47,076 nucleotides of DNA from Ktedonobacterales bacterium (GTDB lineage Bacteria > Chloroflexota > Ktedonobacteria > Ktedonobacterales > JADMIN01), in the NCBI GenBank assembly GCA_025935235.1, contig JAICVT010000001.1, positions 1 to 47,076 of the forward strand. The letters run 5' to 3'. The translations under genes and the position numbers were made by a program. A model generated the notes under the pieces. That model was not told the origin of the DNA and searched no databases. It saw nothing but the letters and a program-made list of their open reading frames with translations. This document shows, in pieces, positions 14,237 through 43,363 of this stretch. Every line of letters starts with the position of its first letter. The first letter of the stretch is position 1.

Positions 14237-14648
14237 CACACCTGCTCCGTTTCTCCTGCCGCGCGCCAGGCTCGTCGCCTTGTCCTGCGCAGCTCTCTCT
14301 GGCCACCTGGCCACTTGCCTCTTGTGCGCTTGCCACTGGTGCGCTTGCCACCTGGCGCCAGGCTCCACGGCTCTCGACCCCCACCCCTCCGCATCGAGTG
14401 ATATGTCTGGTCCGCCTCGCGCCGACCAGGAGGGTGGCGGCGTCGCGGCTGCCGCAGACGGAGGCAGCCGCGAATGGAGAGGGAGTAACTGCTGCGTGCG
14501 GGGGATGAGGATCTGTAACGTCGCCACGCCACTGTGGCATCAACGTGGTAATAGACCTAGTATGGAGGCGCGCCATCAAGCGTGCTTGGGTGGTTCTGCC
14601 CATTTTTTTGCCTGGATCGCTGACGTAGTTGGCGCGGCTCGTCCGCAG

Positions 14649-14788: not shown

Positions 14789-17545
14789 CTAGAGCAGGCT
14801 GCGCTCCAGAGCGAAGCGGGTTGCGGCGGCGCGCGAAGTCACCTCCAGCTTGCTATAGAGCGAGGCGACGTGGTGATTGACGGTCCGTGGGCTGACCACC
14901 AGTTGACGCGCGATTTGCGCGTCGGTCAAGCCCTCAGCGAGCAGGCGCAACACGTCCAGCTCGCGGCGTGTCAGGTGCTCAGCGCCGACGCGTACTGCGC
15001 CTCGGTCCGCGACCGGAGCGTCCTCATCAGCTGAACTGCGGCCCTCGCCGCCCGCCAGCGCCGAGGCGTCAACGAGCGCCTCGGCAAATATCTCCTGCGG
15101 CGTCAACCGCTGGCCCGCCGCGAACGCCGCAGCCCACGGCTCAGCGCGCGCCGCCGCGCGGATGGGCGCCACCAGCGTTTCCCTGCGCAACTGCTCCATC
15201 GCCGCGTAGGGTTGCCGAAGCGTCTCCCACATCTGCGTCGCCGCGCCCAGCAGCCGCGCGCCGCGCTCCTGCTGGCCCCGCTGTACACATGCGACTGCCA
15301 GCAGATCCAGCGCCACGATCACGTCCCAGGGGCGCCAGCCGGTCGCCCAGTTGCTCTCGCGCGCCACCGCCAGCGCCTCCCCCAGCAGTACCGCCGCGCG
15401 CGGCGCCTGGCCCTGCCACAGCGCCACCTCGCCGAGCTGAACCAAAAACGCGGCCGCGTACTGCCGCCGCCCGGCTGCGCGCGCCACGTTCAGCGCTTCG
15501 GTGAATCGGGCTGTCGCCTCGTCCCAGCGCTGCTCCGCACAGGCGAGGCCCCCCAGGCCCCCGAGTGCGGTGAAGATTGCCAGCGCATCCTCGTTCGTGC
15601 GCGCCAGCGCCAGTGCCTCCTCGTAGCACGCCTGCGCCTGGCGAGGTTTCCCCTGCAGGTCTGCGGCGAGACCTATGAGAAGAAGCCCAATCACCTGCGC
15701 CAGCCAGTCGTCCACCACGCGGGCCAGGCGAAGCCCCGCATCCAGCGCGGCGAGCGCTGGGCCGATCTGCCGCAGAGCCGCCAACAATGCGCCGCTGATG
15801 GTGAGCGCACGCGCTCGCAGCCAGGTCGGGATGCTGGCTGTCTCGGGTGGCGCCAGCGCCAGCAGCGTCTCGATCCACTGCTGCCCCTCGCTCAGGTAGC
15901 CCGCTTCGGTCCAGAACCGCCAGAGCGCCGTCGCCAGGCGCAGGCCAAGCTCCGTCTCGCCGGTGGCGCGCGCCCACTGGAGCGCCGCGCGCACATTGCC
16001 CAGCTCACGCTCTACTCGCTTCATCCAGGCGATGTCGTCTGGCCCGCGCAGCTCTGGCTCAGCCTCCTCGGCGAACGCCAACATATAGCGCGCGTGGGCG
16101 CGGCGCATAGCCTCCGCCTCGCCGCTGGCCTCCAACTGCTCCAGCGCGAACTCTCGTACGACGTGGAGCATCTCGAAGCGTGGTATCTCCGCCGCCCAGT
16201 CCTCGCCCACGCGCTGGGCGATCAGGCTCTGATCGAGCAACTCACCCAGGCCGGTCAGGGTGTCCAGACGCAGCGCCGCCGCGCCAGATGGGGTCTGGCA
16301 CACGACCTTCGCCGCATCCAACGTCCAGCCATCCGCAAATACTGCCAGACGCCCAAAGAGACTCCGGCTCCCGGCGTCGAGCAGGTCATAGCTCCAGGCG
16401 ATGGCTGCGCGCATCGTCCGTTGCCGCGTGGGTAAATCGGCCGCCCCAGCCGTCAGCAAGGGCAGTCGGTGTTCCAGTTGCGCCAGCATCGAAGCCGGGG
16501 AGAGCAGGCGCGCCCAGGTCGCCGCCAGTTCGATGCCCAGGGGCAAGCCGTCCAGTCGGGCGCAGATGTCGGCGATGAGAGGCGCGCTCGCGTTGGTCAC
16601 AGGGAAGTCCGGACGAACCGCCCGCGCCCGTTGGAGGAACAACGCCGTCGCCGCATAGTGATCCAATTGCTCAGCGCTGATACGGCCATGCCCACTGGGA
16701 GGAGTGGGAAGCAGCGCGACCGGGTAGACGTGTTCGCCACGGAGACGCAGTGGCGCCCGACTGGTGACCAGCGCCCTCAATCCGGCGCTCGACTCCAGCA
16801 GCTCGGCGATCTGGGGGGCGGCTGCGGCCACCTGCTCGAAGTTGTCCAGCAGCAGGAGCAGCGATTTGTCGCGCAGAAAGCCGCGAAGCACATCTGCGAT
16901 GGGCGCGCCGCCGCTTTCGTTCAGCCCCAGCGCCTGGGCAATCGTGGAAACGACCACCGCTGGGTCAGTCAGTGGCGCCAGCGGCGCCAGCCAGACGCCA
17001 TCGGGAAAGATGTCCTCGGCGCGCTGGAGCGCCCAGGCCGCCTCGAGCGCCAGGCGCGTCTTGCCAACACCCCCCGGCCCGGTGAGGGTGATGAGCCGTG
17101 TTTCCTTCCTCTGCAACAGCGCCGCCAACTCCTCCAGCTCGCGCTCTCGCCCAAGCAGCGGAGTTGGCGCCAGCGGGAGGTTGTGCGGCGGCTTCGCAGG
17201 CGTGTCCAGCGCCGCAGTCGGAAGCGTGGTGTCCAGCGGCACGATACTCGGCTGCGCGCGTGGAAGCAGGATGAGAGCGCCGCGCCCCGCCGCGACGAAC
17301 CCAGCGCGCGTCTCAGGATCAAGGCCGAGGGCGTTGGCGAGACGCTCAATCGTGCGCGTGTGTGGGGCCTTGCGATATCCCAGCTCGAGTGCGCTGATAG
17401 CGCGCCGGCTCAATCCCGTGCGCTGGGCTAACTCTTGCAGCGTCAGGCCCACTGCCAGCCGATAGGTTCGGAGCAAGGAGCCAAAGCGCGCAGCGCCGCT
17501 CGCCAGACCGCCTCGTAGCGGCTGTAGCGTCTCACGGGTCTCCAC
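14789..17545 (-). CDS. STAND-type regulator: XRE-HTH + P-loop NTPase (NB-ARC/AAA-like) + TPR + C-terminal LuxR HTH
   Basis: XRE HTH is GLTLQELAQRTGLSRRAISALELG. Walker A is LTGPGGVGKTRLA and Walker B is LLLLDNFEQ. A long helical TPR-like region follows. LuxR HTH is LTRRELDVLRLLAEGLTDAQIARQLVVSPRTVNHHVASLYSKL. GTG start with AGGAGG 8 nt upstream. Confidence 0.9.
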   Translation of the reverse strand: METRETLQPLRGGLASGAARFGSLLRTYRLAVGLTLQELAQRTGLSRRAISALELGYRKAPHTRTIERLANALGLDPETRAGFVAAGRGALILLPRAQPSIVPLDTTLPTAALDTPAKPPHNLPLAPTPLLGRERELEELAALLQRKETRLITLTGPGGVGKTRLALEAAWALQRAEDIFPDGVWLAPLAPLTDPAVVVSTIAQALGLNESGGAPIADVLRGFLRDKSLLLLLDNFEQVAAAAPQIAELLESSAGLRALVTSRAPLRLRGEHVYPVALLPTPPSGHGRISAEQLDHYAATALFLQRARAVRPDFPVTNASAPLIADICARLDGLPLGIELAATWARLLSPASMLAQLEHRLPLLTAGAADLPTRQRTMRAAIAWSYDLLDAGSRSLFGRLAVFADGWTLDAAKVVCQTPSGAAALRLDTLTGLGELLDQSLIAQRVGEDWAAEIPRFEMLHVVREFALEQLEASGEAEAMRRAHARYMLAFAEEAEPELRGPDDIAWMKRVERELGNVRAALQWARATGETELGLRLATALWRFWTEAGYLSEGQQWIETLLALAPPETASIPTWLRARALTISGALLAALRQIGPALAALDAGLRLARVVDDWLAQVIGLLLIGLAADLQGKPRQAQACYEEALALARTNEDALAIFTALGGLGGLACAEQRWDEATARFTEALNVARAAGRRQYAAAFLVQLGEVALWQGQAPRAAVLLGEALAVARESNWATGWRPWDVIVALDLLAVACVQRGQQERGARLLGAATQMWETLRQPYAAMEQLRRETLVAPIRAAARAEPWAAAFAAGQRLTPQEIFAEALVDASALAGGEGRSSADEDAPVADRGAVRVGAEHLTRRELDVLRLLAEGLTDAQIARQLVVSPRTVNHHVASLYSKLEVTSRAAATRFALERSLL

Positions 17546-17958: not shown

Positions 17959-18036
17959 TAGCGTCCCTTTATGAGTCACTTCCAACCCCGCGCGACATTG
18001 TGCGGGCGCGGAAGTCGAAGAGGGAAGCGACGACGC

Positions 18037-18408
18037 ATGCAAGAGGATCCCGCCCGCGCACGACTGCACCAGCATCTCGACCTGCGACGCGCCCTGCGCG
18101 CGCTGGGCGACGAGGTGCGCCTGGAGATCGTGCATATGCTGGCGAATGGCGCCGAGAGAAAAGTCACCGACCTGGCGGCGACGCTGCTGATTAGCCAGCC
18201 GCTGGTCTCGTGGCATCTGAGCGCGCTGCGTCGCGCGGGCCTCGTGCGCAAGCGTCGCACCGGGCGCGAGGTCTACATCTCGCTGGATCTGGCGCGCTAT
18301 CGCTCTGTCGTTGGTCAACTCGGCTCACTGATTGAGCCAGTCAGCCAGCCGCAACCAGCCGCGCGGCCCATGCGCTCCCCAGCGGAGCCAACGCCGAGCG
18401 CGGGCTGA
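18037..18408 (+). CDS. ArsR/SmtB-family transcriptional regulator
   Basis: wHTH is [64 protein letters not shown]. The ORF is open from 17971 and the start is uncertain. Confidence 0.85.
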
Positions 18409-18436
18409 GGCGGGAACGCGCCTGCAACGCGCCTGC

Positions 18437-18463
18437 ATGGCAGACATGGCAGACATGGCAGGC
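18437..18463. repeat. 9-nt direct tandem repeat x3 (atggcagac)
   Basis: Copies at 18437-18445, 18446-18454 and 18455-18463, upstream of the likely ino1 start. Confidence 0.9.
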
Positions 18464-18550
18464 GCGGCGGGCGCAGCGGGCCGCCAGACGCCGCAATTTC
18501 CGGCGGCGGCGCCCGAGGATCGTGATGGGTCTTCAGGAGGACTACAGTAC

Positions 18551-19738
18551 GTGGGCAAAGACAAGATTCGTGTCGCCATCATCGGCGTCGGCAACTGCGC
18601 CTCTTCGCTGGTGCAGGGTGTCGAGTATTACAAGCATGCCGCCGATGATGAGTTCATCCCCGGCCTGATGCACGTCAATCTCGGTGGCTACCACATCAAC
18701 GACATCGAGTTCAGCGCCGCCATTGACATTGATCAGGACAAGGTGGGCAAGGACCTGAGCGAAGCGGTCTTCGCCGGGCAGAACAACACCTACAAGTTCA
18801 GCGATGTCCCCACCAAAGGCGTGACGGTCGCGCGCGGCATGACCCACGATGGCCTGGGCAAGTACCTCTCGCAGGTCATCACCAAAGCCCCCGGCCATAC
18901 CGCCGACATCGTCAAGCTGCTCCAGGACACTGGAACCGATGTCGTCATCAACTACCTGCCAGTCGGCAGCGAGACGGCCACCAAGTGGTATGTCGAGCAG
19001 ATCTTGCAGGCGGGCTGCGCGATGGTCAACTGCATCCCGGTCTTCATTGGCCGCGAAGAGTACTGGCGCAAGCGCTTCGAGGAAGCGGGCCAGCCGATCA
19101 TCGGCGACGACATCAAGAGCCAGGTCGGCGCCACCATCGTCCACCGCGCGCTGGCTCGCCTCTATCGCGAGCGCGGCGTCAAGCTGGAGCGCACCTATCA
19201 ACTCAACGTCGGCGGCAACACTGACTTTATGAACATGCTGGAGCGCGAGCGACTGGAGTCCAAGAAGATCTCCAAGACCAACGCCGTCATTAGCCAGCTC
19301 GACTACGACCTCGGCACATCAAACGTGCATGTCGGGCCAAGCGACTACGTGCCGTGGCTCACCGACCGCAAGTTCGCCTTCATCCGCCTGGAGGGGCGCA
19401 CCTTCGGCGATGTGCCGCTCAACCTGGAGCTGAAGCTGGAGGTCTGGGATTCGCCCAACTCCGCTGGCGTGGTGATTGACGCCATCCGCTGCGCCAAGCT
19501 CGCCAGGAATAACGGCATCGCCGGGGAGCTGCTGGGGCCGAGCGCCTACTTCATGAAGTCGCCCGCCATCCAGTACACCGACGAGCAGGCGCGACTGATG
19601 GTCGAGGAGTTCATCCGCGATAACGCGCTGGGCGCCAAGCCCGCCAGCGACGCCAAGCCCGCTCAGGCCAAGGCGCACGCCAACGGCCACACGCTGGCCG
19701 AGGCTGGCGCGGTTCGCGACCTGCCGACGGCGGAGTAA
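18551..19738 (+). CDS. ino1: myo-Inositol-1-phosphate (inositol-3-phosphate) synthase
   Basis: [24 protein letters not shown] is nearly identical to the actinobacterial Ino1 N-terminus. The Rossmann and catalytic regions are conserved throughout. GTG at 18551 is preceded by AGGAGG (18535-18540). The ORF is open back to 18332, but that would overlap arsR. Confidence 0.9.
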
Positions 19739-19895
19739 GCGACGCGCCTCGCCCATGCGCGAACATGTGTGATGCGCATCAACGCGCCTGGGCGAGCGGC
19801 GCGTGGCGCGTGGCGTTCGCGCCACCGCCGCTCAGGGCATCTCCCAACGTACATCTGGTATCGCCTCTGATCGCCCGGAAGGCGAGGAGCATGCG

Positions 19896-20885
19896 ATGGT
19901 CTACTGGTTGACACGACTGGCAAGCTGGCTCACGGGAAAGGTTCCCCGCCGCGCGCGTCTGGCGCTGGGGGGGCCGCTCACGACGCTCGTCTACTATGCC
20001 TGGGCGTCGAAGCGGCGCGTGACCATCGCCAACATGGCGCAGATCATCGGCGCGACGCCTGATGATCCACGCGCACGCCAACTGGCCCGCCAATCGTGGC
20101 GCAACTATGGTCGCTACCTCTCCGACTTCTTCTATCTGCCCAATGCGACGCGCGAGCAGGTGATGGCGCGCGTGCGCGATGTCACACCCGCTCCGGGCGC
20201 CTTCGCCGGGCTGGATGAGGCGGCGGCGCTGGGCAAGGGCACGATCATCGCCACCGCGCACTTCGGCGCGTGGGACATCGCGGGCGTGGTCGTCGCCTCG
20301 AAGCAAACACTCTATGTGCTGGCCGACACCTTCACCGACCCGCGCATGGATGATCTGATCCAGGGACAGCGCGCGCACTTCGGGCTGCGCGTGCTGCGGG
20401 CCGAGAAGTCGCCGCGGCCCATCCTGCGGGCGCTGCAAGACAACCAGGCGGTGGCGATCGTGGCCGACCGTCCGCTGCCAGCGAGCGAGGGCACGCCGAT
20501 CACCTTCTTTGGGCGGCGCTGCTACGTGCCGGGCGGGGTGGCGCAGCTCGCGCTGCTCTCAGGCGCGCCGATCGCCGTGGGCTGCGCGCGCTACGACGAC
20601 CAATTCTCGTCCACCTATTACCTCGTCCTGGCGGAGCTGATCTATCCAGAGCGCACAGGCGACCGTCAGGCCGACATCATCCGGCTGACACAGCGCGTCT
20701 ATAGCGCGCTGGAGCGCGTCATCGCGGAACACCCGGACCAGTGGTTCATGTTCCGCCCATTCTGGCCAGAGCAACCAGAGCAATCGGCGACGGCGCCCGC
20801 TGACGCCGCGCCCGCGTTGGCGACGAGCGCTCCGGCCAGCGCCGCGGCCTCCGCGGGCGGCGCGCAGGGGGAAGCGGATGACTGA
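19896..20885 (+). CDS. Lysophospholipid (lauroyl/myristoyl, HtrB/PatA-like) acyltransferase 1
   Basis: LPLAT-family layout: N-terminal membrane-associated helix, then HFGAWD (HX4D-like catalytic motif). ATG at 19896 is preceded by GGCGAGGAG. Its stop overlaps the next start (ATGA). Confidence 0.8.
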   Translation: MVYWLTRLASWLTGKVPRRARLALGGPLTTLVYYAWASKRRVTIANMAQIIGATPDDPRARQLARQSWRNYGRYLSDFFYLPNATREQVMARVRDVTPAPGAFAGLDEAAALGKGTIIATAHFGAWDIAGVVVASKQTLYVLADTFTDPRMDDLIQGQRAHFGLRVLRAEKSPRPILRALQDNQAVAIVADRPLPASEGTPITFFGRRCYVPGGVAQLALLSGAPIAVGCARYDDQFSSTYYLVLAELIYPERTGDRQADIIRLTQRVYSALERVIAEHPDQWFMFRPFWPEQPEQSATAPADAAPALATSAPASAAASAGGAQGEADD

Positions 20886-22032
20886 GCGCCCCGACGCGCC
20901 GAGCGCGCGGCTCGATGTGAATGACCGGAACGATCCTGGAGGTCTGAACGACCGGGCGAGGTACTGGGCGTTCCGCCTGCTGGCGGCGCTCGCGCCGCTG
21001 GCGCCACTCTGGCTGGCCCAGCGCATCGCTGTGGCGGCGGGGGCGCTGCTGTGGCTGTGCGCGGGCGGGCTGCGGCGGCGAGCCGAGCGCAACCTGGGGC
21101 GCATCCCCCCGCTGGCGGCTGATCCGGCGCGGCTGCGTGCGGCCACACGTGGCGTCTTCATCAACCTCGCGCTGAACTACCTGGACTTTTTCCGGGGGCG
21201 CGTCGTCACCTATGAGGAACTGGCGCGCGGCTGGCAGATCACCGGCTGGGAGCTGTTCGAGCAGGCCATGCGAGCGGGGCGCGGCGTCATCATCCTGGGC
21301 GCGCACCTTGGCCCCTTCGAGTACGCAGCATGGAAGCTGGGCGAGCTGGGCTATCCCCTGCTGACCCCGGCGGAGCGGCTGCGACCGGAGCGCTTCAACC
21401 AACTCGTGGCGCGGCTGCGCAACCATCATCACGCGCGGCTCTTGCCGGGCGACGACCGCGAGACGCTGCGCGAGTTGCTCGGCGCACTGCGCAACGGCCA
21501 ACTGGCGATGTTCGCGATTGATCGCTGGGTGATGGGGCCGAGTGACGCATGGCCACTCTTCGGGCAACCCGCGCGCCTGCCGACCGCGCCCTTCGCGCTG
21601 GCGGCGCGCAGCGAGGCGCCCGTCTTTCTGCTGGTTCCCTGGCGCCGCGGACTCAACCGCTATGGCGGCAGCGTGGAGTTGATCACGCCGGAGCGTCTGC
21701 GCCCAGAGGCCAGCGCCGATGGCGAAGGTGGTAGCGAATCTACTGGCGCCCCACGCGGACGCGACCGCGAGGCCGCCATCGCGCGGATGCGCCAGCGGCT
21801 GTATCCCGCGCTGGAGCGCGCCATCAGCGAGCATCCAGAGCAGTGGGTCTCGGCGCTCTCGCCCATCTGGGACGAGCGAGACGCCCAGCCACGGCGGTCG
21901 CGAGCCGCCGCGACAGAGGAAGCGACGGAGCAGACAATGGAGCAGGCGCCAATGGCGACGACGCCCGCAATCGTGAGTGGCGCGCGTTCTGCGTTGCCTG
22001 GAGGAAACGCGCGCGTGCAGATAGCGCAGTAA
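20878..22032 (+). CDS. Lysophospholipid (HtrB/PatA-like) acyltransferase 2
   Basis: Paralogous layout with HLGPFE in the catalytic position. An 8-nt overlap with the upstream paralogue suggests translational coupling. Confidence 0.75.
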   Translation: MTERPDAPSARLDVNDRNDPGGLNDRARYWAFRLLAALAPLAPLWLAQRIAVAAGALLWLCAGGLRRRAERNLGRIPPLAADPARLRAATRGVFINLALNYLDFFRGRVVTYEELARGWQITGWELFEQAMRAGRGVIILGAHLGPFEYAAWKLGELGYPLLTPAERLRPERFNQLVARLRNHHHARLLPGDDRETLRELLGALRNGQLAMFAIDRWVMGPSDAWPLFGQPARLPTAPFALAARSEAPVFLLVPWRRGLNRYGGSVELITPERLRPEASADGEGGSESTGAPRGRDREAAIARMRQRLYPALERAISEHPEQWVSALSPIWDERDAQPRRSRAAATEEATEQTMEQAPMATTPAIVSGARSALPGGNARVQIAQ

Positions 22033-22183
22033 GCAGAGCGTCGTGGGCGCCAGTCGCAATCACTGGACGCAACCAGCGAGAAGCGCCCGCGTAAAGCATC
22101 GGGGCTCGCGCGGCGCCGAACGACCCACACGGCCAAGATGGGCCAGAGCGCACGACGCGCTATCACCTTTCGCGCCAGACCTG

Positions 22184-22189
22184 TATAAT
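22184..22189 (+). promoter_or_regulatory. Candidate -10 element (perfect TATAAT) upstream of the PHP-pimA genes
   Basis: ctgTATAATg in the 380-nt gap after acyltransferase 2. I see no convincing -35. Confidence 0.3.
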
Positions 22190-22230
22190 GAGGTGACTCG
22201 GCGGACAACGCGCGAGCGCGCACAGGTGAG

Positions 22231-22276
22231 ACAAGGCAAGACCAGGCGAGACCAGGCAAGACCAGGCAAGACCAGC
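22231..22276. repeat. 10-nt direct tandem repeat x4.5 (accaggcaag)
   Basis: acaaggcaag accaggcgag accaggcaag accaggcaag accagc, lying between the TATAAT and the AAGGAG at 22283. Confidence 0.9.
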
Positions 22277-22413
22277 GACGACAAGGAGCTTTTCCCATTA
22301 CCTATCCATCAGACACATCAGCGCACAGCACTCGCAGCAGCACACCTGCCGCCGATTACACCCTTTCAGGATACGTTGGCCGCAAGCGCGCCACCGGGCT
22401 TGCCGACCTGCAC

Positions 22414-23235
22414 ATGCATACGACCTATAGCGATGGCGTCGGCTCCGTCGAAGAGACGCTGGCCGTCATCCAGTGGCGCACCGCGCTGGATGTGATCGCT
22501 ATCACCGACCACGACACCATCGAGGGCGCGCTGCGGGCGCGCGATCTGGCGGAGCGACAGCATCTGCCCTTCGAGGTGATCGTCGGCGAAGAGGTCAGCA
22601 CGCGCGAGGGGCATGTGCTGGCGCTCTTCCTGCATCAGCGCATCCCGCCGGGGCTGAGCGTCGAGCGCACCATCGAGCTGGCGCACGCGCAGGGCGGGCT
22701 GGCGATCATCGCGCACCCATTCAATCCCGTCTTCCGTCATAGTGTGCAGCGGCCGGTTGTGGATCGCCTGCTGCGCCAGCCCGATCTGCATCCCGACGGC
22801 ATCGAGACGCTCAACGGCAGCTTCGCGGGCATCGGCTCGTCGCGCGTGGCGCAGGAGCTGACGCGCTCGATCTACCATTGGGCCGAGACCGGCGGCAGCG
22901 ACGCGCACACGCCCTCGGCGATTGGCTGCGCGCTGACCCGCTATCCTGGCTCCGGCGTGGAGGCGCTACGCCAGGCGATCAGCCAGCGCGCCACGAGCGC
23001 GGAGGGCGGCTACTGGCGCGCGCGCGAGTATGTCACCTACGTCTCGCACACCATAGCCTATGGCATCAACGCGACCTATGAGCCAGCGAACCTGCCGCAT
23101 ACGGCGTTCTCGCGGGCGCGGCAGGCCACCTTTGGCCGCTTCGCACACCGGCGCGTCGTTCACCTGATCAATTCGCTGGCGCCCGATTCGCTGTCCGTCA
23201 ATTCGCTTGAAGTGGCGAGCGCGGGCAGACGCTAG
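22414..23235 (+). CDS. PHP-domain metal-dependent phosphoesterase (TrpH/YciV-like); true start lies upstream of 22414
   Basis: HMHTTYSDG...AITDHDT...AHP...ETLNG...GGSDAH are PHP metal-ligand motifs. The first His of the HxH motif and its preceding Asp (ADLHMH) are encoded upstream of the first ATG. Confidence 0.8.
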   Translation: MHTTYSDGVGSVEETLAVIQWRTALDVIAITDHDTIEGALRARDLAERQHLPFEVIVGEEVSTREGHVLALFLHQRIPPGLSVERTIELAHAQGGLAIIAHPFNPVFRHSVQRPVVDRLLRQPDLHPDGIETLNGSFAGIGSSRVAQELTRSIYHWAETGGSDAHTPSAIGCALTRYPGSGVEALRQAISQRATSAEGGYWRAREYVTYVSHTIAYGINATYEPANLPHTAFSRARQATFGRFAHRRVVHLINSLAPDSLSVNSLEVASAGRR

Positions 23236-23313
23236 CCCCATGCTAGTCGCTCGCTCGCACGCTGCCGCGCCAGGCCATTCAGGAGGAGATGGGCGAACGC
23301 CCAGAGGGACCTA

Positions 23314-24510
23314 GTGAAGATCGGACTTGTCTCGCCCTACGACTGGAGCTACCCCGGTGGCGTCCAGGAGCACATCCAGCGCCTGTCCACTGAGCTGCGC
23401 GGGCGCGGCCACAGCGTGCGCATTCTCACGCCGGCCACGGGCGTGCGCGGGCGACAGGTCGAGTATGGCGTCTACAAGCTCGGCTGGGCGGCGCCGCTGC
23501 ATGTGAACGGCTCGATCGCGCGGGTCGCCTTCGCGCCGCACGTCTCTGGACGGCTGCGCGGCATCCTGCATCGCGAGCAGTTCGACATCATCCACCTGCA
23601 CGAGCCGCTGGCCTCGCCGATGGGGCTGTACGTGCTGCATACTGGCCCGGCGACCGGCGCGACGATTGTCGGCACATTCCACGCCTGGGCGCGGCACAGT
23701 CTGGCCTCGGCGCCAGAGTGGGCTTACGCCTCGGCGGCGCCATTCCTGGGGCGCTACTATCGGCGGCTGGATGGCCGCATCGCCGTCTCGCCCGCCGCCG
23801 CGGAGTTCGTCTCACGCTTCTTCCCCGGCGACTTCCGCATCATCCCGAATGGCGTAGATACGCAGGTCTTCCATCCCGATACGCCGCCGCTACCAGCGTT
23901 CGACGATGGCAAGCTCAACATCCTGTACCTGGGGCGCATCGAGAAGCGCAAGGGGTTGAAGTATCTGCTGCGCGCCATCCCGATGATCCGCGAGCACTTC
24001 CCCAATACGCGCTTCCTGATCGGCGGCGACGGGCCGCTGCGCGTGGGATTCGAGCGACTGGTGGCGCAGGCGGGCTGGCCCGATGTCGTCTTTCTGGGGC
24101 GAGTGCCAGGGGAGCAACTACCCGCGCTCTTCGCCAGCGCGCACGTCTTCTGCGCGCCCAACATCGGCGGCGAGTCGCAGGGCATCGTGCTGCTGGAGGC
24201 GATGGCCTCCGGGCGGCCGGTCGTCGCGTCTGACATCCCCGGCTTCCGCTCGGTCATTCGCCACCAGCAGGATGGCCTGCTGACCCCGCCCACGCGCAGC
24301 GAAGAGCTGGCCTGGGCGGTGTGCCATCTGCTCAGCGACGACGCGGAGCGCGCGCGACTGGCCCAGGCGGGTCGGGAGCGCGCCGAAGCGTTCAGTTGGG
24401 AGCGTGTGGCCACCGACGTGCTGGGCTACTACGAAGAGCGGCGGGCGACGGTCAAGCGTGGCTCGCTCTATCTGCCGCCGGAGGCCGCATCGGTCTCGCT
24501 GGCGGATTAA
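23314..24510 (+). CDS. pimA: GT4 glycosyltransferase, PimA-like phosphatidylinositol alpha-mannosyltransferase
   Basis: MKIGLVSPYDWSYPGGVQEHIQRL..., HLHEP, GRIAVS, IPNGVD and CAPNIGGESQGIVLLEAMASGRPVVASD track mycobacterial PimA along the whole length. GTG start with GAGGGA upstream. Confidence 0.85.
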   Translation: MKIGLVSPYDWSYPGGVQEHIQRLSTELRGRGHSVRILTPATGVRGRQVEYGVYKLGWAAPLHVNGSIARVAFAPHVSGRLRGILHREQFDIIHLHEPLASPMGLYVLHTGPATGATIVGTFHAWARHSLASAPEWAYASAAPFLGRYYRRLDGRIAVSPAAAEFVSRFFPGDFRIIPNGVDTQVFHPDTPPLPAFDDGKLNILYLGRIEKRKGLKYLLRAIPMIREHFPNTRFLIGGDGPLRVGFERLVAQAGWPDVVFLGRVPGEQLPALFASAHVFCAPNIGGESQGIVLLEAMASGRPVVASDIPGFRSVIRHQQDGLLTPPTRSEELAWAVCHLLSDDAERARLAQAGRERAEAFSWERVATDVLGYYEERRATVKRGSLYLPPEAASVSLAD

Positions 24511-24745: not shown

Positions 24746-25519
24746 ATGTTCGGGCCGGGCATTCAACAACGAGCGCGACGCATCGCCGAATACGTGGTGC
24801 GTCCACTCGCGGCGATCGGCCTCACACCGAATATGGCCACGCTCATCGGGCTGCTGCTCAATGGCGTCGCCGCGGCGATTCTGGCAAGCGGCAGCCTGCG
24901 GCTCGGTGGCCTGGCGCTGCTGATCGCCGGTCTCTTTGACATGGTGGATGGGGCGCTGGCGCGGGTCACCAACAAGAAGACGACGTTTGGCGCGTTCTTC
25001 GATTCGACGATTGACCGCTACTCCGAAGGGCTGACGCTGCTCGGCGTGATCGTCTTCGCGCTGCGGCAGCCGCCCTCGCCCACGCACACCTGGGAAGTGG
25101 CGCTGGCCTACGTGGCCGCGCTCGGCTCGGTGATGGTGAGCTACACGCGCGCGCGCGCCGAGGGGCTGGGCCTCAGCCTGAAAACCGGGCTGATGGCGCG
25201 CCCTGAGCGGGTGCTGCTGCTGGCGGGCGGCCTGATCATTGGCGGAGCCGATTGGCTCGTGTGGACCCTGCTGGCGCTGGCGGTGACGAGCGTCTTCACC
25301 TCCGCCCAGCGCATCGTTGATGTCGCCCGCATGCTCGCACGAGCGGGCGCCAACTCAGGCGCCCGCACGACCGCGACCGCCGCGCCATCGGAGCGCGCCA
25401 TCAGCGGGAACGGGCACGCCGCGTCGGCTTCGTATTCCACGACAACACAACGAACACCAATCACTCCAGAGTCTCCCTCCTCGGCGCGGTCAAGGGGCGG
25501 CTCTGGGCCAGCGAACTGA
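24746..25519 (+). CDS. CDP-alcohol phosphatidyltransferase (phosphatidylinositol-phosphate synthase-like)
   Basis: Full CDP-OH_P_transf motif D(x2)DG(x2)AR(x8)G(x3)D(x3)D is present as DMVDGALARVTNKKTTFGAFFDSTIDRYSE. Multiple TM helices. Context is ino1 and pimA. Confidence 0.85.
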   Translation: MFGPGIQQRARRIAEYVVRPLAAIGLTPNMATLIGLLLNGVAAAILASGSLRLGGLALLIAGLFDMVDGALARVTNKKTTFGAFFDSTIDRYSEGLTLLGVIVFALRQPPSPTHTWEVALAYVAALGSVMVSYTRARAEGLGLSLKTGLMARPERVLLLAGGLIIGGADWLVWTLLALAVTSVFTSAQRIVDVARMLARAGANSGARTTATAAPSERAISGNGHAASASYSTTTQRTPITPESPSSARSRGGSGPAN

Positions 25520-25938: not shown

Positions 25939-28110
25939 ATGAGCCAGACAACATTTGATCCCACCACGCCGGGCGGCTCCTCAGAGGGCGCCGCGAACAC
26001 CACCTCCACCGGACAGACTGGACAGACCGGACAGCATGGGCAGAGCGCGCGCCATCGCGCGCCGCGCCGCGGGCGCTCCAGCGCCGCCAAGGCCGCCGAG
26101 AACGCCGCGCAGACCACTGCGCAGCTCGCCGCCGAGCGCGAGGTCGCCGCGCCCGCCAGCGCGACCGCCGCGAGCGACACCCCCGCCGCGACCGCCAGCG
26201 CCGCTGAGGAGCGCCCCGCCGCCGAGCCACGCGGGCGACGCAGCCGTGGCGGCGCCGCGAAGCGTCCCGCGCCACGCGGGAAGTCGGGCGCGCAGCTCAT
26301 CATCACCAAAGCGCCAGAGGAGGAGCGGCCAGCCGACCAGGCGAGCGACGCGAGCGCGACAGCGGAAACGCCAGAAACCGCTGCCCTGGCTGGTGATCCC
26401 ACGATGCCAGTCGCCCAGGCGCTAGCGGAGCCACAGGAGCCAGTCGTCGTGCCAGTCGTCACCGCTGAGCCGACCAGCGAGCCGCCCGCGCCGCCACGCA
26501 AGACGCGCTTTGGCCTGCCGCGCCGCCTGCAACAGCAGCCGTCGCAGCCAGCGGCCAGCGCGCCCGCTACCGCAGCGTCCGCAGCGACCGTCGCCGAGCC
26601 TGCCGCCGAGCCTGCGATCTCCGCCCCTGCGACGGAGGCCGCGCCCGCCGAGCCTGGCTCGCCGCCGACCCCGCGCTACCGCTTCGATCGCTCGCGCCGC
26701 ACGACCATTCCTGGCGCGACGCCGCCACGACCAGAGCGGCTCAGCAGCCAGCGATCTGGTCTCTACACTGACAGCGATGCGGCGACGGAGCCGGTCGCTG
26801 AGCCAGCGGCTGAGTCTGCCCCGCGCGAGCATACCTTCGATCTGCCCTCGCTGGACGCCCTGATCGGCGCCAGTGGCGGCGCGGCTGGCTCTGACCTGCC
26901 GACGCTGGCCTTCGAGTCGCCGGCCGCGAGGGCGGGCGCGGCGCCCGCCACGGCTGACCACGCGGACGAGGCCGAGCAGGCGGAGGAGGGCGAACCATCG
27001 GAGTTGGCGGAGGGGGCTGAGGGGGCAAGCGGCGCATCGCGCCGCCGCCGCCGTCGCCGCCGCAGCGGGCCGGGACATAATGGCGCGCATGGCGCCGACC
27101 AGACCGAGCAGGATGAAGCGCTGGATGACTTGAGCCAGCTCGCGCCAGGAGATGATGCGCTCGACGCGCTCTTTTCTGAGGAGCCGAGCGCCGCGCCAAG
27201 CGAGCCGAGCGAGCCGAGCGAGCCAGAGGCACAGCCCGCGCCGCGTGGCCGCAACACGCGCTTCGGCTATCCGGGCCGCGCGTCGCGCCGCCCAGCAGCC
27301 GAGCCGAACTGGGAGGCCGCGCCGCAGCAGCCAGCCCAGCAGGCACTCACCCAGCAGCCAGCAGCGGAGGTATCGCCCTACAGCAGCCCGGAGCCATCCT
27401 TCGCGCGCGGCTTTGGTCCCGCGCCCAGCGGCGCCGCGATGCCGGTGCGCGAGTCGTATCCGCGCACGAGCCGTGTCGAGCGCGGCGTGGATCCGGTAGC
27501 CGCCGCCGTGGCGCAGGTCGGCGCGGTCATCCGCGAGGCGATTGGCGCGCAGACCGATCGCCTGCTGACCGAGATGCGCCATGCGCAGCCGCCCGCCATC
27601 AACGTTTCGATCCCCAACGCGATGTCTACCGAGCGCGTAGGCGTCTTCGTGGATGTGGCGAACATCGTCTACTCGCTGCGTGGCATGCGCTTCTCTGTGG
27701 ATTTCGGGCGTCTGCTCGACTTCCTGCGGGCCAACCGGCGGCTGGCGCGGGCGCAGGCCTATGCGCCGACCAACCCGGAGCCGGGCGCCGAGCAGAGCTT
27801 CCTCAACGCGGTCAAGGGCATGGGTTATCGCATCACCACCAAGAACTACAAGACCTTCTCGAATGGCGCCAAGAAAGCCGACCTGGACCTCGACCTCTGC
27901 ATGGACATCGTGCGGCTGGTGGAGGCCAAGGCGGTGGACACCATCGTGCTGGTCAGCGGCGATAGCGACTTCCTGCCGCTGCTGGACTTCTGCTACGACC
28001 ACGGCGTGCGCGTGGAGGTGGCCGCCTTCGACGACGCCGCCTCGATGATCCTGCGGCAGAGCTGCGATCTGTTCATCAACCTCTCGCTGGTGGATACCAT
28101 CCGGGGGTAG
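25939..28110 (+). CDS. NYN-domain (LabA/DUF88-like) protein with ~530-aa intrinsically disordered N-terminal region
   Basis: The C-terminal roughly 170 aa read VGVFVDVANIVYS...DLDLDLCMDIVRL...TIVLVSGDSDFLPLL...GVRVEVAAF, a NYN/PIN-like acidic-residue pattern. The N-terminus is A/P/E/R-rich with an RRRRRRRR run. Confidence 0.8.
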   Translation: MSQTTFDPTTPGGSSEGAANTTSTGQTGQTGQHGQSARHRAPRRGRSSAAKAAENAAQTTAQLAAEREVAAPASATAASDTPAATASAAEERPAAEPRGRRSRGGAAKRPAPRGKSGAQLIITKAPEEERPADQASDASATAETPETAALAGDPTMPVAQALAEPQEPVVVPVVTAEPTSEPPAPPRKTRFGLPRRLQQQPSQPAASAPATAASAATVAEPAAEPAISAPATEAAPAEPGSPPTPRYRFDRSRRTTIPGATPPRPERLSSQRSGLYTDSDAATEPVAEPAAESAPREHTFDLPSLDALIGASGGAAGSDLPTLAFESPAARAGAAPATADHADEAEQAEEGEPSELAEGAEGASGASRRRRRRRRSGPGHNGAHGADQTEQDEALDDLSQLAPGDDALDALFSEEPSAAPSEPSEPSEPEAQPAPRGRNTRFGYPGRASRRPAAEPNWEAAPQQPAQQALTQQPAAEVSPYSSPEPSFARGFGPAPSGAAMPVRESYPRTSRVERGVDPVAAAVAQVGAVIREAIGAQTDRLLTEMRHAQPPAINVSIPNAMSTERVGVFVDVANIVYSLRGMRFSVDFGRLLDFLRANRRLARAQAYAPTNPEPGAEQSFLNAVKGMGYRITTKNYKTFSNGAKKADLDLDLCMDIVRLVEAKAVDTIVLVSGDSDFLPLLDFCYDHGVRVEVAAFDDAASMILRQSCDLFINLSLVDTIRG

Positions 28111-29262: not shown

Positions 29263-32037
29263 CTACGCGGGGAGCATCTCTGCGACTCTCGCGAGATCGA
29301 GCGCCTGCTGGATCGTGAGCTGCTGGCCAATCTCCGTGGCGCGGGCGACCTCGTCGGCTGAGAGCGCCGCCCGCGCTTGCTCGACAAACTCGCGACCGGC
29401 TGTCTCTTCGGAGTAGACGTTGACAATCCCTTCCTGGTGAGCATAGACCTCCGCCGCGGCGGCGATCTGTACCGCCCGGTCGGGTCGGCGCTCAACAAAC
29501 TCGGTGGAGGCCAGCCCGATCAGCGCCAGTCCGACTCCGCGGACGCTCCCTACGTCAGCATAGGCGCGCGCGGAGTCGAGGAAGGAGCGGCGCGCATCTG
29601 CCGTGTCCTCGCGCCGCAGGAAGATCCAGGCCGTCTCATCGAGGATACGGGCCTCCTCGGCGCGATCGCCGATCGTCTCGAATGCGGCGAGCGCCTGCGC
29701 ATAGAGGTCGAGAGCGCCTGCGAGGTCGCCACGGCCAGCCGCCAGAGCGGCAAGCCCGCCAAGCGTGAGGCCAGTGCCCTCCTTGTCGCCGAGTCGCCGC
29801 TGGATGTCGAGCGCCTGGGAGTAGCGCGCGTGCGCGGTGTCCAGGTCGCCGTTGGCAGTGCGCAGGATGCCTTCGATCGTCAAAGCCATCTCCTGGCCCC
29901 AGGCGAACCCCATCGCCTGGCTCTGCTCGATGCCCTTTGCTGTCCACCGAAGCCCCGCGTCGAGATCAAATCCGAGCAGCCCCAGGCCGATGACAAACGC
30001 CGCCACACAGCGCTCGTGATCGTCGCGCAGCTCGTCCGCGATGGCATAGGACTCTGCCCATAGCTCGTTCGCACGCGCAAACTCACCTAGCACCCACCAC
30101 GCTAGCCCCGCCGTTCTCAGAGCGCCAGATCGTCCGACGGTGCGCGAGCCACTCGCGTCCGTGGCGAGGAAGGCCGAAGCGTAGTCACGGGAGGTGAGAT
30201 TCTTGCCCCGAATGTGCCAATACATGTAGAGATCGCCGCACAGTCGCATGCCCGCTTCGGCGGCGGTCGCGTCACCACTCTGAGCCAGCTTCAGGAAGCT
30301 GTCGAGGGCAGCCTGGAGGTTGCCCTCCTCGGCGATGCCGCGTTCGAGCGAGGCCACCTGAGCGCTCCCCTCGATGCCGTCGCGAATCTCGTGGGCAAGC
30401 CCCGCGTAGCGCTGGGCGTGCCGCAGCGTGATCGCATCCGCCTCACCAGCGGCTTCGAGCCGCTCGCGGCTGTACTCGCCAATCGTCTGCAACAGCCGCA
30501 GCCGGTTGCTCTGGATATCCACCTGCACGAGCGCCTTGTCGACAAGTGACTCCAGCTCATCGAGGCACGACCCGCCTGGGTCCGCGCAGATCGCCTCGAC
30601 ATCAGCGAAGTCGCACCCGCCGACGAACACCGCCAGGCGCCGGAAGAGACGCTGCTCGCTCTCGGTGAGCAACGAATGGCTCCAGTCAATCGCTGCACGG
30701 AGCGTCTGGTGGCGCGAGGGTTGGTCGCGCTGGCCGGTGGTGAGCAGGTTCAGCGCGTGGTCAAGCCGTTCCACCAGCGCCTGCGCGGAAAGCAGCCGCA
30801 GCCGCGCGGCGGCAAGCTCGAGCGCCAGCGGCAGGCCATCCAGGCGGCGGCACACCGCGACGATGGCGCTCGCATTCTCGGGTGTCAGTGCGAACGATGG
30901 CTTTGTGGCGCTGGCGCGTTCGACAAACAGCGCGATGGCGGGGTATTCCAGAAGCGAGGCGACCGACGCCAGATCGGAGCCGACGACTGACGCCGAATCT
31001 GGGGCGGGGAGGGCCAGTGGCGCCAGGGAATACTCACGTTCCGCGGCGATGCGCAGCGGTGTCCTGCTGGTGGTCACGATGCGCAGGCGTGGGCAGCTCT
31101 CCACCAGGCGGGCCACCTCGGGCGCGGCCTGCACGACCTGCTCCAGATTGTCCAGCAGCAGCAGCGCGCGCTTGTCCCCGAGGAGGGCGATGACGCCCTG
31201 GCCAGCCGTGCGGCCCTCCGCCTCCTTCACGTCCAGCGCCGCCGCCAGAGCGGGAAGGAAATTCGCCGGATCGCTGATGTCGGCCATCGGGATATAGGCG
31301 ACGCCATCCAAAAACTCAGGCGCGAGCAGTCGGCCGAGTTCGCCGAGCGCGCTGGTCTTGCCGACACCACCCGGCCCCGTAATCGTGACAACCCGCGCGC
31401 TCCGAACCAGCTCGGCCAGCGCCGCCAGGTCGGTGGATCGCCCAACCAGTGGCGAGCCGGACTCGGGCAGGTTGTTCGGCAGGTTGGCGTAACGCTCGCC
31501 TTTGCCTTCCAGCGCTTGCGGATCTGGCACAACGATGCCATCAGCCGAAACCGCGTATAACTCGATTGGCCGTCCGACGTTCTTGAGTCGGAACCGTCCC
31601 AGGCTGACAAGGCTCACGTCGTGCCGGTTCTTGAGCTGGTCGCGCGCAGAGTCGGACAGCATCACTCCGCCCGGGACCGCGAAGGATTCGATGCGCGAGG
31701 CGATGTTGACTGCATCGCCTGTGAGGCGCTCAGGCTCGACGAACACCTCGCCTACATGCACACCGATGCGCACGGGGATATTCTGCTGGGCAAGTTCGCG
31801 CTGGATGGCGACAGCGGCCTGCGTTGCCGCCAGCGCGCTCGGAAACATGCTCATGCTGCCGTCACCGAGCCGCTGAACAATGCTCCCGCCGAAGGACTGG
31901 TGCTGGCGCTCGACCGCGCGCATGTAGCGGTCGCGCCTGTCGACAGCCAGGCGCTCGTCGGCCTGGATCAGCGCTGTATAGCCGACCATATCGGTGAACA
32001 TCACCGCGACGAGCCGCCGATCGAGATCCTGCATCAC
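29263..32037 (-). CDS. Class III adenylate/guanylate cyclase domain + STAND P-loop NTPase + TPR protein
   Basis: Cyclase motifs are VMFTDMVGYT, GDGSMSMF, RIGVHVGEV and GDAVNIASRIES. Walker A is ITGPGGVGKTS and Walker B is LLLLDNLEQ. The C-terminal part is TPR-like helical repeats. Confidence 0.9.
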   Translation of the reverse strand: MMQDLDRRLVAVMFTDMVGYTALIQADERLAVDRRDRYMRAVERQHQSFGGSIVQRLGDGSMSMFPSALAATQAAVAIQRELAQQNIPVRIGVHVGEVFVEPERLTGDAVNIASRIESFAVPGGVMLSDSARDQLKNRHDVSLVSLGRFRLKNVGRPIELYAVSADGIVVPDPQALEGKGERYANLPNNLPESGSPLVGRSTDLAALAELVRSARVVTITGPGGVGKTSALGELGRLLAPEFLDGVAYIPMADISDPANFLPALAAALDVKEAEGRTAGQGVIALLGDKRALLLLDNLEQVVQAAPEVARLVESCPRLRIVTTSRTPLRIAAEREYSLAPLALPAPDSASVVGSDLASVASLLEYPAIALFVERASATKPSFALTPENASAIVAVCRRLDGLPLALELAAARLRLLSAQALVERLDHALNLLTTGQRDQPSRHQTLRAAIDWSHSLLTESEQRLFRRLAVFVGGCDFADVEAICADPGGSCLDELESLVDKALVQVDIQSNRLRLLQTIGEYSRERLEAAGEADAITLRHAQRYAGLAHEIRDGIEGSAQVASLERGIAEEGNLQAALDSFLKLAQSGDATAAEAGMRLCGDLYMYWHIRGKNLTSRDYASAFLATDASGSRTVGRSGALRTAGLAWWVLGEFARANELWAESYAIADELRDDHERCVAAFVIGLGLLGFDLDAGLRWTAKGIEQSQAMGFAWGQEMALTIEGILRTANGDLDTAHARYSQALDIQRRLGDKEGTGLTLGGLAALAAGRGDLAGALDLYAQALAAFETIGDRAEEARILDETAWIFLRREDTADARRSFLDSARAYADVGSVRGVGLALIGLASTEFVERRPDRAVQIAAAAEVYAHQEGIVNVYSEETAGREFVEQARAALSADEVARATEIGQQLTIQQALDLARVAEMLPA

Positions 32038-35059: not shown

Positions 35060-35154
35060 CTCGTCTCGTCCTCCGCAGCGTCCGTCTGTCTCATCCGCGT
35101 GGTATACGCAGCGCGCCATCCTTCGTGCGGCGCACGCTCTGCTCACCCCGCTCG

Positions 35155-35853
35155 CTAGCTCTTCGGGTCACTCTCGCTCTTCTCGCGCAGCGCATATCCT
35201 GCCCCGCGCACCGTGTGCAACAGGCGCGGCTCGCCTGCGGCCTCCAGCTTGGAGCGCAGATAGCCGACATAGACCTCCAGCACGTTCGACGCGCCGCCAA
35301 AGTCATAGCCCCAGACGCGCTCCATGATGATGTCGCGCGTGAGCACCTGGCGCGGGCGCCGCATGAAGAGCTGGAGCAATTCGTATTCCGTCGTCGAAAG
35401 CTCGATCTCACGCTGGCCGCGATGCGCGACGCGCGTGCCGGTATCCAGCTCCAGATCGTTGAAGCGCAGCACCTCGGTCTGCTCAGGATTGCGCCGCCGC
35501 AGCAGCGCCCGCACCCGCGCTTGCAACTCATCCAGCTGGGCTGGCTTGACCAGATAGTCGTCGGCGCCCGTGTCCAGCCCCTTAACGCGGTCAGTCACGG
35601 CGTCGCGGGCCGTCACCATCAGGATCGGCGTCTGGTCGCCAGACTGGCGCAGGCGCGAGCAGATCTCGAAGCCCGTCATGCCGGGCAGCATCAGATCCAG
35701 GATATAGAGGTCAGGCGGGCGCTCTAGCGCCTTCTGCAGCGCCTCCGGCCCGGTGTGCGCCACATCCACGCTGTACCCCTCATAGGCCAGCGCGCGACGC
35801 CAGGTCTCGGTGATGCGCCGGTCGTCGTCCACGACTAATATATGCGCTTTCAT
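35155..35853 (-). CDS. OmpR/PhoB-family response regulator
   Basis: Receiver is ILVVDDD...[11 protein letters not shown]...ILMVTA. The winged-helix output contains [12 protein letters not shown]...[14 protein letters not shown]. The ATG at 35853 has an upstream AAGGA. Confidence 0.92.
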
Positions 35854-36028
35854 AGAATTTCCGCCGTCCTTTCGCGCGTGGATCTCCTCCATTGTACGCC
35901 ACGCGGCGCTACGCCCGGCGCCAAAGACGCGGTAAGTACTCTTATGTACAATTCAGGTGTGACTCACGTGCGTCTCATGCCGCCATGCGAGACTGATACC
36001 TGCACAACACGACACGAAGGAGGGACGC

Positions 36029-40653: not shown

Positions 40654-40670
40654 GAGCAACCTCCCTGCGC

Positions 40671-42364: not shown

Positions 42365-42451
42365 AGCGACAGCCTCGATTCTGGCATAGAGTGGCGCGGC
42401 GGCGGTTGATGATGAGCGTATGGATTAGGCAATCGTGTGGCGCCGTAGGAG

Positions 42452-42591
42452 ACGGGCGGGTAAACCCGCAGCTAAGGGCGTTCCGCCGCGAAGCCTGCCT
42501 CCGCAGGCTAGGAGACGGTGGGTTACGTCCTAGCCTGCGGAGGCAGGCTTCGCGGCCCGCAGGCCACTTAGCTGCGGCTTCAGCCGCCCGT
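42452..42591. repeat. 140-nt imperfect palindrome with 29-bp perfect central stem
   Basis: Arms 42485-42513 (gccgcgaagcctgcctccgcaggctagga) and 42528-42556 are perfectly complementary, around the 14-nt loop gacggtgggttacg. Outer pairings are ccgcagctaag/cttagctgcgg and acgggcgg/ccgcccgt. Confidence 0.9.
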
Positions 42592-42654
42592 GGCCCCGCG
42601 CCGGACCATCACCCAATCACCATGTGTTTCCGCATCAACCGCTGGCTTGTTATG

Positions 42655-43146: not shown

Positions 43147-43260
43147 GTGAGAAGCTCTCCTTCTTGCACGCACGCGCTGCTTCAGCGTCTGCGCCAAAAT
43201 GCGGGCGTGGGGGTTCGCTTGGGATTGTAGCGTGGGGCTTGCGCCAGCGTCAAACCCGTC

Positions 43261-43300: not shown

Positions 43301-43363
43301 GTGCCAGCGCCGCTGGCTATCAGCGGTCTATCGGCGGCGCGTCAGCGGTGCGTCAACTGCGCG

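Follow-up and report, generated by a model that had tools for sequence, protein, structure and literature searches.

A PHP-family phosphoesterase with a probable AUU start codon is a candidate phosphatidylinositol phosphate phosphatase in Ktedonobacterales

Introduction

Which enzyme removes the head-group phosphate of phosphatidylinositol phosphate (PIP) to give phosphatidylinositol (PI)? In prokaryotic PI synthesis, this dephosphorylation alone lacks a general gene assignment. The only bacterial PIP-DAG (DAG, diacylglycerol) phosphatase identified genetically is the PgpA-like BT_1525 of Bacteroides thetaiotaomicron (Heaver et al., 2022; PMC9246714). The mycobacterial enzyme is described as “long-sought” and still unidentified in a preprint from July 2026, which proposes EphE for the role along with ML0451c, a NUDIX-domain protein, and a 2022 review of archaeal lipid biosynthesis likewise gives the PIP phosphatase as unidentified. 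In cultured Ktedonobacteria, PI is a major polar lipid (PMC12453558).

Here, we analyze a gene for a PHP-family phosphoesterase in an inositol-lipid operon of a soil Ktedonobacterales bacterium (GenBank assembly GCA_025935235.1). The window is a stretch of 47,076 nucleotides (contig JAICVT010000001.1, positions 1 to 47,076, forward strand) with a G+C content of 68%. An earlier note, made from the letters of this DNA, had proposed the gene as a PIP phosphatase because of its position, had placed its start at a non-canonical codon, and had held that the dephosphorylation step is poorly assigned in most bacteria and not attributed to a PHP enzyme. The literature agrees with the last point: the step is assigned only in Bacteroides, and no link between PHP proteins and PIP dephosphorylation was found in the searchable literature. 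The locus raises two further questions, namely what the enzyme acts on and where its translation starts.

Results

The PHP gene occupies a conserved place in an operon for inositol lipids

The PHP gene is located between the second of two acyltransferase genes and a pimA-like gene, as the earlier note had it, and the neighboring products resemble PatA, PimA, PgsA1 and Ino1 (Table 1). The GT4 protein matches PimA structures at 2e-59 over residues 1–375, with the next family at 5e-25. The top NCBIfam match of the acyltransferases is PRK07920, a phosphatidylinositol mannoside (PIM) acyltransferase, at a score below the cut-off. Similarly, the top three NCBIfam matches of the CDP-alcohol phosphatidyltransferase are PIP or archaetidylinositol-P synthases, all below cut-off, and its best PDB matches (4e-20) are PgsA1 from M. 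tuberculosis (6h53/6h5a) and the PIP synthases 5d91/5d92 and 6wm5. Residues S132, P153, R155 and R195 of the M. tuberculosis PIP synthase (MtPIPS) are kept in the window transferase, and K135 is replaced by R. [quoted passage not shown] The predicted products of the locus make up a mycobacterial-type route via PIP in which only the step from PIP to PI is otherwise without a gene, and the PHP gene is the sole phosphoesterase gene in the operon. A Pfam scan of ten further open reading frames (ORFs) located between positions 10900 and 41900 of the window gave regulators, a kinase/response-regulator pair, a GT20 protein and a permease, and no phosphatase of the PgpA, PAP2, HAD or IMPase type.

The homologues are Ktedonobacterales (Chloroflexota) proteins, and most longer loci of this order have the complete gene series ArsR-MIPS-AcT-AcT-PHP-GT4-PIPS (MIPS, myo-inositol-1-phosphate synthase; AcT, acyltransferase; PIPS, PIP synthase). 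Shorter loci have parts of the series, and none of the loci departs from it. The gene for an NYN-domain protein follows wherever the flank is long enough. A second group of PHP proteins, 38–47% identical and traced by protein search to Candidatus Limnocylindria/Limnocylindrales, has the same gene set in another order. Two long Ca. Limnocylindria contigs carry ArsR-PIPS-MIPS-AcT-AcT-PHP-GT4, where the PHP gene overlaps each of its neighbors by 4 nt. A neighbor-joining tree of the 139 PHP sequences from all loci groups the PI-linked PHPs into a single clade. Those of Dormibacterota, Patescibacteria and others fall outside this clade, and PI genes are absent within 6 kb of them. In two classes of Chloroflexota, the PHP gene thus retains its operon place despite rearrangement.

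The candidacy proposed in the earlier note survives this comparison, and the operon neighbors, the synteny in two classes and the single clade all bear on it by association. Conversion of PIP to PI is the best-supported role for the PHP enzyme and, in our judgment, a moderately probable one. Several observations count against it. The 47 kb cover only part of the genome, and a PIP phosphatase of the PgpA-like, PAP2 or HAD type may be encoded elsewhere. To our knowledge, the PHP enzymes of known function all act on soluble substrates, and the window protein lacks both transmembrane and strongly amphipathic segments. Finally, the substrate of the enzyme, like the AUU start discussed below, is predicted from sequence and gene context.

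The PHP protein could also belong to the PI/PIM pathway but act on a different substrate, which we consider unlikely. It could be an IMPase-like enzyme for inositol-1-phosphate, act later than the GT4 step as a phosphatase of mannosylated or acylated PIP, or be a phosphodiesterase of inositol-lipid turnover. Synteny by itself supports just some phosphoesterase step in this pathway, PHP enzymes comprise both monoesterases and diesterases (e.g., RNase AM, 7ug9, and Cv1693, 2yb1), and the missing membrane-spanning segment can be counted on the same side. However, an inositol phosphate phosphatase would consume the substrate of a synthase that keeps both of its phosphate-binding arginines, the closest PDB matches of the GT4 protein are PimA proteins, named as phosphatidylinositol mannosyltransferases, and no pathway step other than PIP to PI lacks a gene in the operon.

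Translation very probably starts at an ATT codon

The PHP frame follows a TGA stop codon at 22189–22191 and is open from 22192 to the TAG at 23233–23235. Between 22192 and the ATG at 22414, it holds no in-frame ATG, GTG or TTG, and for this reason a mechanical ORF list gives the gene only as 22414..23235. Translation across this site reads ...GRKRATGLAD-L-H39-M40-H41-TTYSDG (residues numbered from the ATT at 22297), such that the ATG encodes the middle residue of the H-x-H in the first PHP metal-binding motif. The H39 codon (22411–22413) and the D37 codon lie 5´ of the ATG. D37, H39 and H41 are invariant in an alignment of 80 sequences, and the match to the Pfam PHP model begins at D37. A start at M40 is excluded because the protein would be without one metal ligand and without the first β-strand (residues 33–37 in an AlphaFold2 (AF2) model). 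Direct reading of the sequence thus bears out two claims of the earlier note, that the frame is open without a canonical start upstream of 22414 and that this ATG cannot be the initiator.

The same false start is found in public data. Of the 29 closest public protein clusters, nine begin at the Met of the H-x-H (P0012, P0013, P0017, P0023–P0026, P0028 and P0029); DNA was retrieved for four of these, in addition to genome and metagenome loci. This is a systematic annotation error, with about one-third of the closest homologues truncated within the H-x-H. Other public homologues are over-extended to far-upstream ATGs, through the promoter (P0008, P0009, P0016 and P0020). The residues D-L-Y-N in the extension of P0009 resemble a translation through the conserved CTGTATAAT box described below.

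The ATT at 22297, preceded at 8 nt by the Shine-Dalgarno (SD) sequence AAGGAG, was put forward in the earlier note as a plausible initiator, and comparison of loci supports it. AAGGAG-N8-ATT occurs once in the window, where 0.05 occurrences are expected. Among 14 distinct Ktedonobacterales loci that bear the motif (A)AGGAG-N7/8-AT[TC], it is in frame with the H-x-H, with the frame open, in all but one (L004). The 13 loci with the in-frame motif (the window, L001, L002, L003, L082, L083, L084, L100, L116, L161, L163, L164 and L166) have ATT in nine cases and ATC in four. The distance from AT[TC] to the D codon is 75, 87, 96, 99, 108, 111, 129, 138 or 198 nt. These nine distinct lengths imply at least eight indels, every one a multiple of three. 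When the loci are pooled, there are no stop codons among 467 codons in the AT[TC] frame, compared to four and nine in the remaining frames. A canonical start is missing entirely from six loci (the window, L083, L116, L163, L164 and L166), and three loci (L163, L082 and L116) have a stop codon at the SD or just 5´ of it, which makes a start further upstream impossible.

The pattern of conservation points in the same direction. The sequence 5´ of the Ile codon is kept as DNA, with the SD occurring in two phases, and not as protein, and so resembles a ribosome-binding site. Conservation at the protein level starts around R-A-T-G-L-A-D-L-H-x-H, upstream of which relatives vary in both sequence and length. 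The earlier note would have counted a shared ATG 3´ of the H-x-H in orthologues as a refutation; no such ATG is seen, and the ATGs that relatives do have are scattered upstream, at 7, 17, 19, 22 or ~24 codons before the D codon. Taken together, AUU 22297 is very probably the initiator.

Three observations sit less well with this start. First, the G+C content at third codon positions (GC3) is 0.68 in the N-terminal extension compared to 0.81 in the body of the gene and 0.62 in the leader, which makes codon composition a weakly informative measure that barely supports coding in the extension. The weak bias fits a poorly constrained, disordered N-terminal peptide. Second, the ATT in L004 (CAWEJL010000002.1, a long-read metagenome-assembled genome) is out of frame by one base. 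An ATG is present 7 codons upstream of its D codon, and the locus either uses this ATG, carries assembly indels or has a decaying gene; the sequence is probably indel-prone. The C-terminus of the L004 protein (P0027) is frameshifted relative to its closest relative, L003. Third, several relatives also have an in-frame ATG within the extension, and those lineages may start there instead or as well.

It is improbable that translation of the window gene starts elsewhere, at CTG 22408 or AAG 22384, or that the window copy is a pseudogene or the product of an assembly error that removed a canonical start. L003 and L004 have an ATG where the window has AAG (..GF-M-RATGLAD), other relatives have one elsewhere in the extension, and the codon bias of the extension is weak. 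Against this, six independent assemblies lack a canonical start and nevertheless have an intact ORF of high conservation, identity between the window protein and its closest relatives reaches 88%, and the SD-AT[TC] motif and its frame are kept through the length changes described above. AAG is a very poor initiator. CTG 22408 (22408–22410), which the earlier note had listed as a second option, is rejected; it has no SD, and a start there would delete the conserved RATGLAD segment with its β-strand.

The protein has a complete PHP active site but is not TrpH/YciV

When started at the ATT, the protein has a variable, disordered extension (residues 1 to ~30), a PHP barrel (31 to ~240) and a basic helical C-terminal tail (241–312) with a net charge of +5 compared to -9 for the core. 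The matches to Pfam PHP (PF02811; 29.3 bits vs. a cut-off of 26.4) and PHP_C (PF13263; 30.1 bits vs. 21.3) are above the gathering scores. Nine metal ligands (H39, H41, D46, H72, E99, H106, H140, D202 and H204) are invariant in 80 homologues; the pattern HxH, D, H, E, H, H, DxH is complete and aligns to the motifs of RNase AM. The AF2 model has a mean pLDDT of 81, with most of the core above 90 and residues 1–22 below 50. The top PDB matches of the model in Foldseek are PHP-family proteins, the first eight with E-values of ~1e-11 to 1e-12, and include RNase AM (7ug9), TM0559 (2anu), BVU_3505 (3e38), PsfC (7rty) and Cv1693 (2yb1). The protein belongs to the PHP superfamily, with a full ligand set and a predicted distorted (β/α)7 barrel.

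The earlier note had called the protein TrpH/YciV-like, and this label does not hold. The score against the NCBIfam equivalog for RNase RNM is 55.6, with a cut-off of 375, and that against the nucleoside bisphosphate phosphatase equivalog (nside_bi_sphtase) is 47.7, with a cut-off of 400. Furthermore, an insertion of ~90 residues in RNase AM (7ug9 chain residues 82–172) has no counterpart; phmmer joins query residues 107/116 to chain residues 81/173. By these measures, the window protein is not an orthologue of TrpH/YciV (RNase AM, COG0613). Public annotations of its homologues read “phosphoesterase TrpH”.

These comparisons bear on the suggestion that the protein acts on nucleotides or RNA in the manner of TrpH/YciV, i.e., as a pAp phosphatase or a 5´-3´ exoribonuclease such as RNase AM, with an operon position unrelated to its function. 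The best PDB matches in both sequence and fold are RNase AM (7ug9, 9etk) and Cv1693 (2yb1), in line with the public annotation label, but the equivalog scores fall far short, the RNase AM insertion is missing, the embedding in the operon is kept in two classes with overlapping genes, and the PI-linked PHPs form a clade of their own. We consider this explanation to have little chance of being right.

A lipid substrate raises the question of membrane association, and here the basic C-terminal tail and the hydrophobic C-terminal helix of some homologues are suggestive. Homologues outside the PI clade end in such a helix (e.g., ..LLKYLYFFIPIGLRL..); the group comprises L019–L023 and L117–L120, from Patescibacteria/Saccharibacteria and others, as well as L039, L048, L074, L078, L126–L128 and L132. 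Several of the homologues outside this clade are encoded directly downstream of an unrelated GT4 gene, and the wider family may work at the membrane or use glycolipid intermediates as substrates.

A conserved -10-like box and a lineage-specific repeat precede the gene

The intergenic region between the second acyltransferase gene and the PHP gene contains the -10-like element CTGTATAAT, the end of which overlaps the in-frame stop codon TGA. The element is unchanged in the window, L001–L004, L082–L084, L161, L163, L164 and L166, while the flanks diverge. The box is invariant in ten relatives, whereas their leaders are otherwise ~48% identical and of differing length, with poor conservation apart from the -10 box and the SD. 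The TATAAT at 22184–22189 reported in the earlier note is present and is the sole copy in the window; with 1.08 copies expected, the count alone is not significant. Conservation of CTGTATAAT suggests that it acts as a promoter -10 element. A point against this is that no sigma-70 -35/-10 pair and no consensus -35 were found within 21900–23400; no terminators were found in the same interval. The leader itself gave no Rfam match at E <= 1, and its folding energy is no better than that of shuffled sequences (z = -0.10), and a known RNA element in the leader is rejected.

The earlier note had also described a 10-nt tandem repeat in the leader. The repeat is there, but Tandem Repeats Finder (TRF) places it at 22229–22275 with 4.7 copies rather than at 22231–22276 with 4.5. 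Its absence from relatives (L001–L004) marks it as a lineage-specific insertion. It lies upstream of the SD, so its copy number cannot shift the frame of the ATT-started ORF, and it is probably without a role. Other parts of the window also hold short tandem repeats with comparable scores, e.g., at 43260–43300. A phase-variation switch, by which a gain of one unit or loss of two (+10 or -20 nt) would bring GTG 22193 of a +1-frame ORF (22043–22495) into the PHP frame, is rejected as highly improbable: relatives without the repeat still lack canonical starts, the GTG sits 4 nt after the -10 box and for that reason is probably not transcribed, the +1 ORF is non-coding in composition (GC3 0.62), and both SD and ATT are downstream of the repeat.

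Coordinates and remaining features of the window

With its start at TTG 18332, the mechanical ORF for MIPS shares 77 nt with the ArsR-type gene. Translation of MIPS probably begins further 3´, because the MIPS match in relatives begins after the end of the ArsR gene. The NYN gene is kept ~1.5–1.9 kb downstream of the PIP synthase gene in most of the longer Ktedonobacterales loci, and in the window the N-terminal region of its product overlaps short tandem repeats at 26008–26204.

Table 1. Features of the PHP locus; positions are those of the window.
Feature	Position	Strand	Description and evidence
ArsR-type HTH gene	17971-18408	+	Upstream of MIPS
Myo-inositol-1-phosphate synthase (MIPS, Ino1)	18332..19738	+	Pfam Inos-1-P_synth 1.8e-36; syntenic in all Ktedonobacterales loci
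LpxL-family acyltransferase 1, PatA-like	19803-20885	+	Pfam Lip_A_acyltrans; PDB PatA 5f2t, 5oce, 7ojt, ~2e-17
LpxL-family acyltransferase 2, PatA-like	20878-22032	+	Pfam Lip_A_acyltrans
CTGTATAAT, -10-like element	22181..22189	+	AcT2-PHP intergenic region; conservation; stop TGA 22189-22191 overlaps its end
Leader (putative 5´ UTR)	22190..22282	+	T-poor; length varies among relatives; holds the 10-nt tandem repeat
Tandem repeat AGACCAGGCA	22229..22275	+	TRF: period 10, 4.7 copies, 91% matches, score 80
Shine-Dalgarno AAGGAG	22283..22288	+	8-nt spacer to ATT; AAGGAGC kept in 13 distinct loci including the window
Proposed initiation codon ATT	22297..22299	+	13 distinct loci including the window have it in frame, with no stop before the H-x-H
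PHP-family metallophosphoesterase CDS	22297..23235	+	312 aa + stop; Pfam, AF2, Foldseek, ligand conservation
Internal ATG	22414..22416	+	M40, middle of the H-x-H of the first PHP metal-binding motif; false start picked by gene callers
PimA-like GT4 mannosyltransferase	23314..24510	+	PDB PimA 4n9w, 2gej
CDP-alcohol phosphatidyltransferase, PIP-synthase type (PgsA1-like)	24746..25519	+	NCBIfam, PDB
NYN-domain protein	25939-28110	+	723 aa; C-terminal NYN; long N-terminal region without Pfam match

The remainder of the window contains three large STAND-type regulators at 14789–17545 (-), 29263–32037 (-) and 37963–40659 (-), with the domain sets HTH_3 + AAA/NB-ARC + TPR + LuxR GerE; adenylate/guanylate cyclase + AAA + TPR; and HTH_3 + AAA + TPR. 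A HAMP histidine kinase/OmpR-type response regulator pair at 32894–35892 (-) adjoins the gene for a GT20 protein resembling trehalose-6-phosphate synthase at 36029–37792 (+). The strongest tandem repeat of the window (13256–13555; period 84 nt, 3.8 copies, TRF score 274) is inside an ORF at 12362–14527 (-) of 721 aa without a Pfam match, which probably encodes a protein of 28-residue repeats. A perfect 10-nt repeat, CAGACCGCGC, with 4.1 copies at 43260–43300 is followed by an 11-nt repeat with 3.8 copies at 43335–43376, near the junction of ORFs 42391–43230 and 43199–44299, in a style like that of the repeat in the PHP leader.

Discussion

We propose the following model for the locus. The mRNA probably starts just after the conserved CTGTATAAT element. 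Translation would begin at AUU 22297, read as fMet and driven by the strong SD 8 nt upstream, to give a catalytically complete metallophosphoesterase of 312 residues with three metal sites. A weak start that is discriminated against by IF3, combined with a strong SD, may keep the output low or tie it to the translational status of the cell. In the pathway, Ino1 would produce inositol-1-phosphate and the PgsA1-like synthase PIP, from which the PHP enzyme most likely strips the head-group phosphate to give PI. PI would then be mannosylated by the PimA-like GT4 enzyme, and the two PatA-like enzymes would perform acylation.

A broader and more tentative possibility is that Ktedonobacteria and Ca. 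Limnocylindria fill the step from PIP to PI with a dedicated clade of PHP metallophosphatases, and that one lineage of Ktedonobacterales adds an output set by AUU or AUC. A PHP gene that is operon-locked to those for Ino1, PIPS, PimA and PatA in two classes is a concrete candidate for a step without a general assignment. If the proposal is correct, the enzyme would be a further, non-orthologous PIP phosphatase beside BT_1525. The PHP superfamily would then reach lipids and gain its first lipid head-group phosphatase. The start codon would couple inositol-lipid synthesis to IF3-dependent start-codon discrimination, and ATT/ATC initiation in this group would be a clade-wide example of rare-codon initiation outside model organisms.

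Initiation at rare codons has precedents. In E. coli, infC and pcnB start at AUU or other rare initiation codons. Published accounts describe an ATT start in ebpA of Enterococcus faecalis (PMC4447247) and a GTC start under IF3 control in sigR of Streptomyces (PMC5472188), and Deinococcus deserti is presented as a further case. The PHP gene resembles ebpA, sigR, infC and pcnB in that the rare start is kept among relatives, annotators prefer a downstream ATG, and the start is expected to lower expression or make it sensitive to IF3. Unlike these precedents, it represents a new gene family and phylum, the codon is ATT or ATC depending on the lineage, and some lineages have gained downstream ATGs.

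The closest solved structures, RNase AM/TrpH (YciV) and Cv1693 (7ug9, 9etk, 2yb1), share the PHP barrel and the same nine metal ligands with the window protein, which differs by the missing insertion of ~90 residues, its genomic context and its basic C-terminal tail. At the level of the operon, the nearest parallel is the mycobacterial pgsA1-patA-pimA cluster (Rv2612c-Rv2610c) together with ino1. The neighbors of the PHP gene find their best structure matches there, and both pathways follow one logic. Compared to the mycobacterial cluster, the operon in Chloroflexota additionally holds ino1, a second PatA-like gene and the PHP gene. The nearest functional parallel is BT_1525, which is similarly encoded within an inositol-lipid cluster beside MIPS and PIP synthase and for which the same reaction, PIP to PI, is proposed. 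The two differ in family: BT_1525 is PgpA-like, and the window enzyme, a metalloenzyme of the PHP fold with three metal sites, has no PgpA family among its Pfam or NCBIfam matches. Provided that the proposed function holds, the two enzymes represent a non-orthologous displacement, in which the function is analogous and the family is not shared.

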